Assembly (NCBI GenBank): GCA_965217775.1 | Contig: CBDCJH010000002.1 | Coordinates: 6,112,001-6,176,000 of the forward strand | DNA: 64,000 nucleotides | From: Acidobacteriota bacterium | GTDB lineage: Bacteria > Acidobacteriota > UBA6911 > RPQK01 > JAJDTT01 | Direction of reading: 5' to 3' | The notes under the pieces: generated by a model | Database searches by the model: none | What the model was told of the DNA's origin: nothing | Seen by the model: the letters and a program-made list of their open reading frames with translations, nothing else | Translations under genes and position numbers: made by a program | Shown: positions 12,749-22,178 of the stretch, one piece after another | Numbering within the stretch: position 1 is the first letter of the stretch | How the letters are laid out: every line of letters starts with the position of its first letter

Positions 12749-14108
12749 ATGGAGCTGTATCCGCCGCGCGCCGTGGAGTGGGCGATGAAGGTGCAGGAAG
12801 TGATCCTTCGAGCGATGAGTGGGCAGATCAAGTGGTTCCAGGCGGCTGAGATCATCGGAGTGAGTCCTCGAACCATGCGGCGCTGGCGGCGCCGTTACGA
12901 GGAGTACGGCTACGACGGATTATACGATCGACGGCTGAAGCGGCCCTCGCCCAAACGGGTCCTCCTGGCCACGGTCGAGAAGGTGCTGCGGCTGTACCAG
13001 GAGAAGTACCGGGACTTCAACGTCGCCCATTTCGTGGAGAAGCTGCACTTCAAAGAAGGGATTCCTCTGAATTACAGCTGGGTGAAGAAGGCGCTCTCTG
13101 GAGTCGGGACTGGTTCGGAAGCGGCGGCGACGGGGGACGCACCGGCGACGCCGACCGCGGCGGCCTCTGAAGGGGATGATGTTGCACCTGGACGGGAGCA
13201 AACATCGCTGGTTGCCGGGTTCGGGATACCAAGACCTGATCCTGAGGTTCGACGATGCGGACAGCGAGGTCTACCAGTCCGTGGTGAAAGTCCCGCGAGC
13301 ACCGAGACCGTTCCTGCGCCCGCCGGACAAGGCGCGATTCGGGAGCATACCGGGAGTATGTGATCGAATCGCAACGCAGTCCGCCGGGATGCAGGGACGG
13401 TCGGATGCCGTGGCGACTTTTGCCACGGGCTGCTACTACGCGCAACTGGTGGCGGAAGAGAGCACGAAGACGGTGATGGCGGCGATCCGGGAGGTGGTCG
13501 GTCAACAAGGCGTGTTCAATTCGCTTTACACGGACGCGGCGAGTCACTTCGTGCACACGCCGGTGGCGGGATACCCGCCGGACCGGGAGCATCGGACCCG
13601 GGTGGCGCGGGCGTTGGAGCGGCTGGAGATCGAGTTGATCGTGGCGCATTCCCCCCAGGCGCGGGGTCGGTGCGAAGGGATGTTCGGGACCTGGCAGGGC
13701 CGGCTGCCGCAGGAGTTGCGGTTGCGAGGGATCCGCACGCTGAAAGAGCCGAACCGGTATCTGCGGGAGGGGTGGATCGGGTTTCACAATCGACGCTTCA
13801 CGGTGCCGCCGGCTCCAGCGGGAACGGCCTTTGTTCCGGCCGACGGGATCGATCTGGAGCAGATCTTTTCCCACCGGGAGAACCGGGTGGTGGGCGCGGA
13901 CAATACGGTGCGGTACCGGCGGCGGGTTCTGCAGATCGAACCGCAGAGGTTTCGCCACACTCTGGCCAAGTGCCGGGTGTGGGTGTGCGAGCACCTGGAC
14001 GGGAACTTGAGCCTTTACTACGGGCTTCACCGGCTGGGGCGATCCGACGGGGGGTTCAAATTTTCACCGACCGGACAGATCACGTGTCAAAAAAACCGGA
14101 CAACTTGA
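12749..14108 (+). pseudogene. ISNCY/IS1202-type DDE transposase, frameshifted near 13098 and carrying an in-frame MITE
   Basis: N-terminal HTH in ORF 12749-13363; LHLDGSKHRW, DDA, LYTD, SPQARGR.E...TWQGRL in ORF 13176-14108; the frames join if one base is removed in GCGCTCTCTGGAG. Confidence 0.88.
13275..13432 (-). mobile_element. 158-bp MITE, full copy, 4-bp target duplication CTAC
   Basis: TIRs CAGTCCGTGGTGAAAGTC / GACTTTTGCCACGGGCTG; CTAC at 13271-13274 and 13433-13436; removing it restores the codons S-E-V-Y-Y-A-Q-L. Confidence 0.95.
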
Positions 14109-14755: not shown

Positions 14756-15310
14756 GGTTGTGTTGCAACTTTGGCCGACGACGGCTGGTAGCCTGAGGAG
14801 ATCATGAAGAAGGCAATCCGACCGGCGATCTTCAAGTGGCGAGAAACGGAGCCCGATTTGATTCTTTGCGCCGTGCGCTGGTAGCTTCGCTATTCCTCTC
14901 GTTCCGCGATGTCGAAGAGCGGCTCAGCGAGCGCGCCCTGGAGGCGGACCCCACGACAATCTGGCGCTGGGTCCAGCGCTACGGTCCCGAACTGGAGGAG
15001 CGGAGGCGCCGTCGTCTCAAGCCAACCAACAAGTCCTGGCGTGTCGATGAGACCTACGTTCGCCTCAATGATCGCTGGTGCTACCTCTACCGCGCCATCG
15101 ATTCCACCGCCGCCACGATCGACTGCGTACTCTCGGGGTTGCTCATGCCGCGGCGGCCAAACGCCTGTTCCGCAAGGCGCTGACTGATCCGTCGCATCCT
15201 CAACCCCGCGTCATCAACCCGGACCAGGCGCGCATCTGTAAACTCGGCGATCCTCGCCGTGCAAGAACAAGGAACGCTGCGTCGCCGATGCCGACATCGC
15301 CTGACCCCTG
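14756..15310 (+). pseudogene. Degenerate IS6-family element (left IR plus broken transposase)
   Basis: GGTTGTGTTGCAACTT resembles an IS6 IR; FKWRETEPDLILCAVRW*, TTIWRWVQRY, SWRVDETYV...YLYRAIDS, AAKRLFRKAL; contains stops and frameshifts and is 3'-truncated. Confidence 0.85.
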
Positions 15311-17188: not shown

Positions 17189-17509
17189 TCAGGAATGGGC
17201 ATCGGTTCTGCTCCCTGCTACCGCCATCATCGTTTTCCGGGGCTGGACGCGCTCGGCAATACTACGGCCAGACTCGATCTCTTCCCGCCGCAGCTCCCAG
17301 GTCTTCTGCAGATTCATCCAGACCTGCCGTGTCGTCCCGAAGTAGCGCGCCAGGCGCAATGCGGTGTTGGCGGTTACGCCCCGCTGCCCATTCAGGATCG
17401 CCGTGATTCGATTCACCGGGACGTCGAGCGCCTTCGACAACGCATTCGCCGACAGGCCAAGCTCATCCAATTCGTCCCGCAAGATCTCTCCCGGATGCAC
17501 CGCCCGCAT
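17189..17509 (-). CDS. higA: HigA-family antitoxin
   Basis: HPGEILRDEL...TALRLARYFGTT..WMNLQ; the RBS-linked upstream ATG (17527) is followed by an in-frame TAG. Confidence 0.9.
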   Translation of the reverse strand: MRAVHPGEILRDELDELGLSANALSKALDVPVNRITAILNGQRGVTANTALRLARYFGTTRQVWMNLQKTWELRREEIESGRSIAERVQPRKTMMAVAGSRTDAHS

Positions 17510-17596
17510 TCTATTCTAGAAGCTCATCGCCTCGACCTCCTCAGTGATAATCTAGGGGATTATATACGTAAGTGCCGAGAATTCAGGCTGATGGGT

Positions 17597-17602
17597 TACA
17601 AT
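17597..17602 (+). promoter_or_regulatory. Putative -10 box for a leaderless tnpB transcript
   Basis: TACAAT 7 nt before the ATG at 17610; no Shine-Dalgarno sequence. Confidence 0.5.
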
Positions 17603-17609
17603 TCCGACC

Positions 17610-18785
17610 ATGAAAGGCCACGCAACTATCCAGTGCAGAGCCAAGCTGTCCAAGGGTGGAATCCGGCGGTTGGACCGGGTGAGGTCCATCCTGAATCGGC
17701 TGTACAACGCTGCACTGGAGGAACGCAGGACGACGTGGGAATCCGAGGAACGCGGCGTGACCCTGTACGATCAGATGAAGGGGTTGACCTCCCAGAGGAA
17801 GGACGATCCGGAGGGGCTCGGGTCGGTGGCGGTCAAAGCGGAGCGTGGGATGTTGATGCGGTTGGACCGGGCCTTCAAGGCGTTCTTCCGTCGCTGCAAG
17901 GCGGGGGAGAAGCCGGGGTATCCTCGATTCCGGCCCATTGCGAGGATGGAGACCATCGACGTCGTCGACCCCAAAGCGACCATGGTGAAGAAGCGCGCTC
18001 GGGGCTACGCCATCCGGCCCAAGGGCTTCCCGACGATCCGGATATTTCCGTCCCGGCCGTTGCCGGACGGATGCCCGTTGAAGGCGTTGCGGATTGTCCG
18101 CAAGCCGAACCGGGTGTATGTGGACCTGACGTACGAGGTGGAGAAGCCGCCGCTACCGAAATGCGAGTCTTCGGTAGGGATCGACCTGGGCGTCCGCAAG
18201 CGAGCGGTGCTGTCCACGGGTGAGAGGATCGAACGGAATAGACGGGACTGGGCGGGGATCCGAAAGCAGCAGAGAAAGGTCTCCAGGTGCAAGAAGATTT
18301 CCAAGACCAGACGGAAGCGGATCGTACAGCTATCTCGGCTCCGTCACCGGGAAGCGGTCCGAAACCGTAATGCCTGCCATCGTCTCTCCAGCAGGATCAT
18401 TCGTGAGCACGGTCTGATCGCTGTGGAGAAGCTGAACATCCAAGGGATGGTAACGAAGGGCTCGAAGAAGAAGGGGCTGAATCGAGAAATAATGACGCAA
18501 TCCTGGGGGCTTCTGCGGAATCAACTCCAGTACAAGGCAGAATGGGCCGGTCGGAAGTTCGTAGAAGTGAATCCCGCATATACATCGCAGGACTGCCACC
18601 GGTGCGGCGCCCGCCACGATCCAGGGCGGAGCGAAACCTTCCGGTGCAGGGCCTGCGGACTTAGAATGGACAGGGACCACAATGCCGCCCTGAACATTCT
18701 CAGGGCTGGGGTTCTTGCCCTGGGCACCGGAACGTATCTCGTTGGGGAAAGCGTGGTGCCAGAACTGTATGCCAAGGGCACTTAG
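17610..18785 (+). CDS. tnpB: RNA-guided endonuclease TnpB
   Basis: LYNAALEER, KPGYPRF, RuvC-I GIDLG, RuvC-II IAVEKL, YTSQDCHRC...CRAC zinc finger, RuvC-III DRDHNAALNI. Confidence 0.96.
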   Translation: MKGHATIQCRAKLSKGGIRRLDRVRSILNRLYNAALEERRTTWESEERGVTLYDQMKGLTSQRKDDPEGLGSVAVKAERGMLMRLDRAFKAFFRRCKAGEKPGYPRFRPIARMETIDVVDPKATMVKKRARGYAIRPKGFPTIRIFPSRPLPDGCPLKALRIVRKPNRVYVDLTYEVEKPPLPKCESSVGIDLGVRKRAVLSTGERIERNRRDWAGIRKQQRKVSRCKKISKTRRKRIVQLSRLRHREAVRNRNACHRLSSRIIREHGLIAVEKLNIQGMVTKGSKKKGLNREIMTQSWGLLRNQLQYKAEWAGRKFVEVNPAYTSQDCHRCGARHDPGRSETFRCRACGLRMDRDHNAALNILRAGVLALGTGTYLVGESVVPELYAKGT

Positions 18786-18874
18786 GTATATAAGCCCCAT
18801 AATCTATGATGTTGACGGGTGTGGGTGAGTGTATCAGCGGTCATCTGAGTTCTTTCCTCAAGTTCGTCTCACTA

Positions 18875-20931: not shown

Positions 20932-21026
20932 GCCGGGAAGAAACCTATCACATGCCCCTGGGTGCGGGAAGAGGTGTCTGAGTGCCCTTCACCCGGAAGC
21001 TACCCGTGGGTGAAGGCCAGTCCGGG

Positions 21027-22178
21027 ATGGAGCCGAATCGTCGCGCTCTGCTCACGCGCAAGATCAAGAAGAGAGCCCGCCAGTTGGGTTTCCATGCCGT
21101 CGGCGTCTCACCGGCGGACCCGGGACCCGATGACAAGCTCCGAGTCTGGCTGGAGCTGGGATACCAGGGCTCCATGGCCTACCTGGAGCGCCAGGCCGAG
21201 AAGAGGCTCGATCCGGGGAAGGTGTTGCCGGGCGTCCGGTCCATGATCTGCGTCGCCCTGGCCTACCCCCATTCCCAGCCGTTGCCCTACGACGATCCCA
21301 ACCGGGGAGTCATCTCCAGGTATGCATCTGGGGACGACTACCACTCGGTCATGGGAACCCTCATGGCGCGGCTCCTGGAGTCGATCCGGGAGGAAATTCC
21401 GGGCATCGGGGCCAGATTCTACGTGGACAGCGGTCCGGTGATGGACAAGTACTGGGCAGCCCGGGCGGGCATCGGGTGGCTGGGAAAGCACACCAATATT
21501 CTGGACCGGAAGCTGGGATCCTGGTTCTTTCTGGGCGAGATACTGCTGGACGTGGAGTTGGACTATGACGAACCGGCCCCGGACCACTGCGGCTCCTGCA
21601 CCCGCTGCATCGATGCCTGTCCCACGGACGCCATCGTCGAACCCTACCTGCTGGACAGCCGCCGCTGCATCTCGTATCTGACCATCGAGCTGAAGGAGGA
21701 CATCCCCGAGGATCTGCGAGAGCCCATGGGCAACCTGGTCTTCGGCTGCGACATCTGCCAGGACGTCTGTCCCTGGAACCACCCGGTTCCCGATGCCTCC
21801 GTCCCTGATCTGGAGCCTCGTCCCGTCAACCGGTCGCCCGAACTTTGGGAGCTGGCCCAGTTGTCCCAGGACGAGTTTCGCGAGAGGTTCAGCGGCAGTC
21901 CCGTCAAGCGGGCCAAGTGGCGCGGTTTCGTCCGCAACGTCGCCGTGGCCATGGGCAACTCCGGCAACTCCGATCTGGCGCCGGAGTTGACGAATCTCCT
22001 GAACTCGGAGGATCCCATGGTCAGGCGTCACGCGGGTTGGGCGCTGAAACAGCTCGTCACGCGGGAGGCGCTGGACGCCGTCCGCAGGCGTTGCTCCCGG
22101 GAGTCGGACTCTGAGACGAGAGCGACGCTACGAGAACTGCTCGACGACGAGGCGGCCGATCCTGCGGGGGTCAGTTGA
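21027..22178 (+). CDS. queG: tRNA epoxyqueuosine reductase
   Basis: ISRYA.GDDYH, GWLGKHT, GSWFFLGE, CGSCTRCIDACPT, CISYLTIE, FGCDICQDVCPWN, HEAT-like tail. Confidence 0.95.
   Translation: MEPNRRALLTRKIKKRARQLGFHAVGVSPADPGPDDKLRVWLELGYQGSMAYLERQAEKRLDPGKVLPGVRSMICVALAYPHSQPLPYDDPNRGVISRYASGDDYHSVMGTLMARLLESIREEIPGIGARFYVDSGPVMDKYWAARAGIGWLGKHTNILDRKLGSWFFLGEILLDVELDYDEPAPDHCGSCTRCIDACPTDAIVEPYLLDSRRCISYLTIELKEDIPEDLREPMGNLVFGCDICQDVCPWNHPVPDASVPDLEPRPVNRSPELWELAQLSQDEFRERFSGSPVKRAKWRGFVRNVAVAMGNSGNSDLAPELTNLLNSEDPMVRRHAGWALKQLVTREALDAVRRRCSRESDSETRATLRELLDDEAADPAGVS

Follow-up and report, generated by a model that had tools for sequence, protein, structure and literature searches.

The stretch of DNA analysed here, a 64,000-nt window of contig CBDCJH010000002.1 from an Acidobacteriota genome (assembly GCA_965217775.1), contains a tnpB gene that is the single gene of a 1244-bp unit (17555-18798) bounded by 22-nt inverted ends. 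Coordinates are positions on the forward strand of this window unless a locus or contig label precedes them. The two arms of the terminal inverted repeat (TIR), TIR-L and TIR-R, are complementary at 20/22 positions (91%) with a spacing of 1200 nt, and the ends of the unit start with GGGGATTAT. An exact 8-bp duplication lies immediately outside them, the order at the junctions being CTCAGTG, ATAATCTA, GGGGATTATATACGTAAGTGCC ... GGCACTTAGGTATATAAGCCCC, ATAATCTA, TGATG. There are 33 nt between TIR-L and the start codon of tnpB, and the stop codon TAG (18783-18785) sits within TIR-R. In the list of open reading frames (ORFs) tnpB is the only long one between 17555 and 18798, and no transposase is found inside these limits. 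An earlier note, made from the sequence alone, had described a tnpB unit of this length, with these repeats, an exact duplication and no internal transposase, and was correct in every detail. The features of the unit, including those discussed below, are collected in Table 1.

Table 1. Features of the tnpB unit, its flanks and its predicted guide-RNA scaffold (SL, stem-loop; A3, the trimmed alignment described in the text).
Feature	Position	Strand	Basis or remark
G directly 5' of the left duplication; candidate target-adjacent motif base	17546..17546	+	flank counts over insertions
Left copy of the 8-bp target-site duplication, ATAATCTA	17547..17554	none	sequence; single copy in empty allele
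TIR-L, GGGGATTATATACGTAAGTGCC	17555..17576	+	sequence, inverted-repeat search; 21/22 identical to ends of 1762-bp IS1595-family element
tnpB, 391 aa + stop	17610..18785	+	Pfam, NCBIfam, homologue alignment, dN/dS
Predicted omegaRNA/reRNA scaffold	18693..18798	+	covariation; overlaps tnpB 3' end and whole TIR-R
Scaffold SL1 (predicted)	18701-18706 with 18717-18722	+	alignment A3
Scaffold pseudoknot (predicted)	SL1 apical loop 18708-18713 with 18793-18798	+	alignment A3
Scaffold SL2 (predicted)	18723-18728 with 18755-18760, plus inner pairs	+	alignment A3
Scaffold conserved linker	18761-18767	+	alignment A3
Scaffold SL3 (predicted)	18768-18773 with 18785-18790	+	alignment A3
TIR-R, GGCACTTAGGTATATAAGCCCC	18777..18798	+	includes the stop codon of tnpB and strands of two scaffold helices
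Right copy of the 8-bp duplication; presumed first 8 nt of guide	18799..18806	none	exact ATAATCTA
Flank presumed to provide remainder of guide (predicted)	18807..18818	+	inference

The product of the gene matches the Pfam domains Cas12f1-like_TNB (1.3e-26) and OrfB_IS605 (2e-17) and the NCBIfam model guided_TnpB (NF040570; 217 bits, cut-off 100), and scores under the exception cut-offs of the NCBIfam models IS200_TnpB and IS607_TnpB. The nearest solved structure is that of ISDra2 TnpB (5e-32), the match covering residues 27-375 and thus nearly the full length. Among 19 aligned homologues D192, E273 and C349 do not vary, and conservation of D354, D356, C329, C332 and C346 is 90% or higher; the RuvC D-E-D triad and the four zinc-finger cysteines are intact in the window TnpB. 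The ratio of nonsynonymous to synonymous substitution (dN/dS) of tnpB between subfamilies is 0.13-0.31 (7 comparisons; two further ones were saturated), and TnpB is therefore under purifying selection.

The source genome (6.43 Mb in two contigs) holds 12 copies of the unit at 94-100% identity, together with one copy at 85% and three remnants, and all 16 TNB-domain matches in this genome belong to this one family. Since the similarity among the 12 copies begins and ends exactly at both repeats, the boundaries are not due to chance. Eleven of the 12 have an 8-bp duplication of their own (10 exact, one at 7/8), all of them different, and the full tnpB reading frame is kept in 10/12. One copy (L012/L015, C2 around 4647300-4648700) is 1406 bp long and has tnpB broken by an insertion of ~160 bp; another (L011) is 1265 bp long with a shortened frame. 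The twelfth copy, L004, has no duplication; like L039, L043, L124 and L159 it is a full-length unit with good repeats and unrelated 8-mers on its two sides, a pattern that recombination between copies or an adjacent rearrangement would produce.

Sites without the unit can also be recognised. Empty sites with a single 8-mer were found in related genomes for three other copies of the source genome. For the insertion in the window itself related genomes yielded no such site; synteny is lost there, and the DNA on the left is a higA-like module present in several copies. In metagenome contigs from two DNA runs (X1 and X5) the window's site is empty: 17546 is joined to 18799, the joint omits 1252 bases and 8 letters are common to both sides. 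The window insertion is therefore still polymorphic. It is clear from these data that the tnpB unit is a transposon that has moved many times and recently. The copies with the same ends and different duplications, and the empty allele with one 8-mer, that the earlier note had envisaged are thus found, the former 12 times in this genome and in 59 independent insertions overall.

A profile search of the source genome with PF12762 (DDE_Tnp_IS1595) gave ten matches. Among these are four intact 1762-bp IS1595-family elements and one 1760-bp copy with a broken frame, all with inverted ends of 22 nt that match perfectly, GGGGATTATATACGAAAGTGCC, and each flanked by a different 8-bp duplication. Their ends are identical to TIR-L at 21/22 positions and to TIR-R at 19/22, and beyond the repeats the element and the unit have ~4 nt in common. 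The transposase has zinc ribbon and DDE domains and matches PF12762 at 1e-38 and NF033547 at 177 bits (cut-off 75). The end pattern occurs at 35 places in the source genome, every one of them in a tnpB unit or in one of these transposase elements; no tnpB-free miniature element with these ends was among them. The Y1 signal of the genome is limited to three weak Y1_Tnp (PF01797) matches (39, 31 and 22 bits; 3e-9 to 7e-4), in ORFs of 225-316 aa at C2:5635604, 4665981 and 2626245, none of which is near a tnpB copy; no typical IS200-type gene was seen in this genome. These ORFs may be REP-associated tyrosine transposases. The 1762-bp element also carries a second ORF of 110 aa (L022:912-1241, reverse strand) with weak matches to NA-iREase1 (1.4e-7) and Mrr_cat (2e-4), which may be a truncated restriction-endonuclease-like passenger.

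Since the transposase is absent from inside the unit and present in trans, the unit is filed as a non-autonomous IS1595-family derivative. That it is a DDE element moved in trans, as the earlier note had proposed, is well supported by the transposase elements with matching ends; we infer mobilisation by the IS1595 transposase from the matching ends, the matching length of the duplication and the co-occurrence of the two kinds of element. The family assignment made in the note likewise agrees with the shared ends, the 8-bp duplications and the transposase in trans, and the autonomous partner that it had anticipated is present. The narrower placing in the ISNwi subgroup, which the note bases on the end and duplication hallmarks given for that subgroup in ISfinder, is a possible one.

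The same arrangement is seen well beyond this genome. Diverged subfamilies of the unit, at 72-85% nucleotide identity, occur in genomes of the same genus, each with its own repeat variant and its own 8-bp duplications. A wider scan, taking one genome per species, found 313 relatives, of which the best 80 (43-96% protein identity) were analysed; going by record titles and tree labels, they belong to Acidobacteriota, Candidatus Binatota and Chloroflexota, with a single record from Pseudomonadota. Among these best 80, 47 have the repeats together with a duplication at 7-8/8, 7 have the repeats only and 4 have a two-gene form, so that 58/80, from all four phyla, have the same end type. In the two-gene or cis form (L139, L141, L142 and L153; 2249 bp, four copies) a transposase and tnpB lie within one pair of perfect repeats, with an exact 8-bp duplication in each case and with tnpB downstream of the transposase in the same orientation. 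The cis-form IS1595-family transposase is 50% identical to that of the 1762-bp element, and the transposases of the autonomous and cis forms match PF12762, PF12760 and NF033547. The existence of the cis form means that the lineage has autonomous as well as tnpB-only forms, as with IS605 and IS1341. In a quick IQ-TREE tree, which is unrooted, has no outgroup and contains one very long branch (L095), unit-type elements are found in every major clade.

On the evidence of these comparisons the IS1595/tnpB arrangement is old and broad and not a one-off recent capture. The earlier note had argued for a recent insertion, and the insertion in the window is polymorphic; the capture itself belongs to an old lineage that includes the cis form with transposase and tnpB. 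When end types are tabulated in this way, the shared type recurs throughout the protein's clade. Three Chloroflexota relatives (L143, L147 and L150) have a different inverted repeat, starting AGACGATTTCA, with an 8-bp duplication at 7/8 and again a G just outside it; this may represent a second end type within the TnpB clade.

The last ~105 nt of the unit are conserved beyond what the weakly conserved protein tail accounts for. A structure for this region was read by eye from a trimmed alignment of 19 sequences (A3) and then tested; four Chloroflexota rows that are one column off in SL1 were scored as unpaired there. The predicted scaffold has 31 pairs, and 90.1% of 585 cells are standard pairs; shifting the partners by 1-3 columns lowers this to 39-50%. 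Changes on both sides are seen in 15 of the 31 pairs, and 0/500 shuffles reach the observed values on four of five measures. Two of the helices are built on TIR-R, one using 18785-18790 (SL3) and the other the last six bases, 18793-18798 (pseudoknot), and the loop and tip that form the latter covary across lineages (GGGGTT with AAGCCCC, GGGAAT with AATTCCC, GGGACT with AAGTCCC). A single-sequence fold recovers SL2 and SL3 (z = -1.9). Rfam gave no match to the scaffold at the gathering threshold, its one hit (E = 0.69) being taken as chance. RNAalifold had been run on a wide alignment of 26 sequences (A2), which is poor in its middle part and gave 8 pairs only; A3 replaced it.

The covariation shows where such a scaffold would end, namely at the last base of the element, 18798, and indicates that TIR-R is both an inverted end and, as predicted, part of the RNA scaffold. 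Because the pseudoknot ends at 18798, and given the position of the conserved G described below, the 8-bp duplication should form the start of the guide. Two RNA libraries gave contigs that cover the element, pass TIR-R and extend 48 and 67 nt into sequence flanking other copies, which is compatible with read-through.

With every insertion read in the direction of tnpB, position -1, which immediately precedes the left duplication on its 5' side, is almost always G. Counting the independent tnpB-only insertions with a duplication matching at 7-8/8, G is found at -1 in 58/59; with the two-gene insertions (3/4) the total for tnpB-bearing elements is 61/63. The background frequency of G at nine positions farther out is 0.32. 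In the transposase-only IS1595 insertions, a control restricted to those with clear ends and leaving out many IS1595 loci of genomes G002, G004 and others, G is found in 7/20 when oriented by the transposase and in 6/20 in the reverse orientation (tnpB-bearing versus transposase-only, Fisher p = 1.3e-8). The difference persists within genomes G000 and G006 alone, where the counts are 15/16 and 7/18 (p = 0.0011). Just 3' of the right duplication there is no base preference in the 59 tnpB-only insertions (A17 C14 G15 T13); the G is thus found on one side only and follows the element's orientation. The duplication itself has a roughly symmetric, AT-rich profile, as would be expected of the transposase. 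In the source genus G is also enriched one base farther out, in a hand count of flanks.

The G at -1 is already there in the empty sites of related genomes and metagenome contigs, and in the filled site a C from the repeat tip occupies the position that corresponds to it. Since the tnpB-bearing and transposase-only elements have near-identical ends, presumably one enzyme moves both kinds, and the G would then not be the transposase's own preference. A one-base target-adjacent motif (TAM) acting on empty sites would fit these observations.

It is probable, in our judgement, that the unit is a non-autonomous member of an old IS1595-family (DDE) lineage with an OMEGA cargo of tnpB and guide RNA, which would work as follows. 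An IS1595 transposase would bind the ends of the unit in trans and move it. Transcription would exit through the right end, so that the guide consists of the 8-bp duplication and the adjoining flank. TnpB with this RNA would then cut the empty version of its own site, made up of G, 8-mer and flank; the filled site would be spared by the C of the repeat tip where G is needed, and recombinational repair from the filled copy would restore or spread the insertion. Insertions without G would be unprotected and lost over time, leaving only G-flanked ones to persist or multiply. It is this persistence that, in the proposal, would explain why G is near-absolute and orientation-specific next to tnpB units and why their transposase-only siblings show no such bias. 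The more specific claim, that survival of the insertions of a DDE cut-and-paste transposon is decided by TnpB through a one-base TAM (G), that the transposase scatters both kinds of element regardless of G, and that tnpB-bearing copies are left only where the empty allele can be cut, is put forward more tentatively; we would rate it just short of an even chance.

The main rival is that the G is chosen at insertion, the transposase, alone or with a TnpB ribonucleoprotein bound at one end, inserting beside G in one orientation with no later filtering. In its favour, G is present at all source-genome copies that have a duplication, even though some are 99-100% identical and the window copy is polymorphic, and the cis-form elements, too, have it in 3/4. 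Nonetheless, transposase-only elements in the same genomes, with ends 21/22 identical, show G at the background level (the 7/18 of G000 and G006), from which it follows that the transposase alone does not require it. Furthermore, one base holds very little information with which to recruit a complex, and an orientation cannot come from the repeat tips alone, which in several subfamilies do not differ from each other. Directed insertion is regarded as unlikely. Less likely again is that TnpB is a passive or re-purposed cargo, such as an RNA-guided regulator or an inactive relic, the 3' RNA structure serving transposase binding, mRNA stability or termination. Relatives of TnpB have indeed been domesticated as transcription factors (PMC10705468), and some genomes retain elements without a detectable partner. 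Against this, TnpB proteins throughout the clade retain the catalytic D-E-D and the zinc finger, the dN/dS values of tnpB are low (0.13-0.31), the elements are mobile and multi-copy, the pseudoknot beside the guide position is typical of active TnpB guide RNAs, and an orientation-specific flank base would not be expected of a passenger.

Hardly credible, finally, is that a classical tnpB-only element of IS200/IS605 type came to lie by chance inside an IS1595-derived miniature element, the repeats being unrelated to tnpB. Elements of IS1341 type with tnpB only are common, and the similarity of the unit to the autonomous element is restricted to the repeats and the few bases next to them. However, the short distance from TIR-L to the start codon and the stop codon within TIR-R leave no room for separate ends of IS605 type; bases of TIR-R pair and covary with upstream segments of the RNA; the layout is kept down to 43% protein identity and in four phyla; and the source genome has neither a tnpB-free miniature element with these ends, as far as the end-pattern search could find, nor a canonical Y1 transposase.

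Several points weigh against the preferred reading, in which TnpB acts on empty sites after trans mobilisation. Genome G041 has five tnpB elements and no IS1595 transposase at 1e-10, and the one IS1595 transposase of G045 has a stop codon. In the repeat scan 22/80 relatives were unclassified, several of them having one recognisable end; in the tree they are scattered among the classified ones. The tree, being unrooted and free of an outgroup, does not place the origin of the tnpB/IS1595 association. The transposase-only control is small, consisting of 20 insertions from three genomes. The RNA-library data are contigs, which are blind to the ends, strand and level of transcripts, and DNA carry-over is possible. 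The covariation of loop and tip would also be expected from a DNA-level copy of the left tip, but this is unlikely because the two matching pieces are 58 nt apart. A TAM of one base would be unusual, those known for TnpB being longer, such as TTGAT in ISDra2 (PMC13565253) and GGG in ISXfa1 (PMC10711439). Furthermore, cut-and-paste excision normally leaves a break and not a resealed empty site, and the timing of the encounter between TnpB and its target is questioned in a 2026 review as well (PMC13565253).

The neighbourhood of the insertion is rich in mobile-element debris. A higA-like gene of the helix-turn-helix (HTH) type (17189-17509, reverse strand; HTH_3, 1.8e-9) directly adjoins it. This module is multi-copy, with ~85% copies in 7/8 other genomes of the genus and two more in the source genome, and its other copies have a single 8-mer followed by sequence different from that in the window. 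Farther upstream are an IS6-family transposase fragment (14836-15180, forward strand; DDE_Tnp_IS240, 6e-12) and, just before it, an ORF of 310 aa (13176-14105, forward strand) with no Pfam match. Downstream, at 20982-22178 (forward strand), is an ordinary epoxyqueuosine reductase QueG-like gene (QueG_DUF1730, Fer4_16, HEAT). The left flank of another source-genome copy (L002:890-1060) contains a ~160-bp repeat that occurs at 85-100% identity in well over 200 places in five genomes of the genus; this miniature element or REP-like repeat, of very high copy number, has no relation to the tnpB unit.

Cas12 descends from TnpB, which is itself a genome editor of compact size. To our knowledge, its selfish role in bacteria has been worked out only for transposons with scarless excision (IS200/IS605 and IS607). 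Recent texts ask why TnpB is tied to these two groups and argue that it would be of little use to DDE transposons (PMC10711439; PMC13565253). The elements described here provide a natural comparison, in that elements with and without tnpB, in the same genomes and with near-identical ends and equal duplication length, differ in one flank base; the question of TnpB and DDE transposons is therefore directly testable. If the more specific claim of survival decided through a one-base TAM is true, this would be the first natural read-out of OMEGA homing or retention for a transposon that makes a duplication; the guide would begin with the variable duplication, and the inverted repeat of the transposase would supply scaffold for the guide RNA. 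The lineage also illustrates how a single stretch of 22 nt can be bound by a transposase and belong to an RNA scaffold, and TnpB enzymes that may need a single G beside their target would give access to a wider range of editable sites.

That prokaryotic TnpB occurs in DDE transposons has been known since 2023. Altae-Tran et al. described six DDE-associated TnpB branches (DDE-1 to DDE-6) with inverted terminal repeats, and read solo tnpB elements, whose ends are nearly identical to those of transposase-bearing elements, as mobilised in trans (PMC10691335). The prokaryotic parallel to Fanzor association with DDE transposons drawn in the earlier note therefore holds as to the association, and it is not the first. 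Those branches resemble the lineage described here in their inverted repeats, in a tnpB 3' end near the transposon end and in a DDE transposase beside tnpB in some members; unlike for it, the passages compared report for them neither a TAM or an asymmetry at the target site nor a guide-RNA structure formed by the repeat. One of the six may be this lineage. The main text names only IS630 (DDE-6), and a 2026 review lists ISL2, IS630 and IS1031 (PMC13565253); IS1595 and ISXO2 are absent from the main texts of both. Full-text literature searches combining TnpB with IS1595, and IS1595 with RNA-guided, gave nothing on such an association as judged from titles and the starts of abstracts.

With the IS1595 family itself (ISNwi1-like elements, some with passenger genes) the unit shares ends starting GGGG(A/C)TTAT and AT-rich 8-bp duplications, and it differs in lacking a transposase, in having an RNA-guided nuclease and its RNA as passenger, and in one repeat that would double as scaffold. 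Classical tnpB elements have neither inverted repeats nor duplications (PMC13565253; PMC6188088), and elements of the IS1341 group (IS200/IS605) depend on a Y1 HUH enzyme for their movement and enter a target on the 3' side of a motif of 4-5 nt (PMC13565253). The unit is like the IS1341 group in having tnpB as sole gene, a 3'-encoded guide RNA that would run into the flank, a presumed mobilisation in trans and a TnpB homologous over nearly its full length to that of ISDra2 (5e-32), and unlike it in its 22-nt terminal inverted repeats, variable 8-bp duplication and DDE partner. The guide RNAs of ISDra2 and ISXfa1 similarly have stem-loops and a pseudoknot, in which an apical loop pairs with five or six bases before the guide (PMC10711439). 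The TAMs of those two systems, TTGAT and GGG, are set by the target of the HUH or serine transposase, whereas the single conserved G of the window lineage does not appear in the DDE transposase's own target preference.

A similar layout is seen in non-autonomous Fanzor transposons with TIRs, such as the Fanzor1 element of SfAV (Yoon et al. 2023, PMC10711439), which also have a TnpB-family gene as sole gene, inverted repeats, a duplication, and repeat bases that belong to the guide-RNA scaffold. In the Fanzor elements of eukaryotes and their viruses the scaffold incorporates the duplication, which is short and fixed, and the pseudoknot has been lost from Fanzor1 RNAs (PMC10711439); in the window unit, by contrast, a variable 8-mer duplication appears to start the guide, the predicted pseudoknot is kept and the host is a bacterium. 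Relative to the texts compared, what appears to be new is the association with IS1595, the double role of the repeat, a duplication of variable sequence that probably starts the guide and the G that is specific to tnpB-bearing elements.

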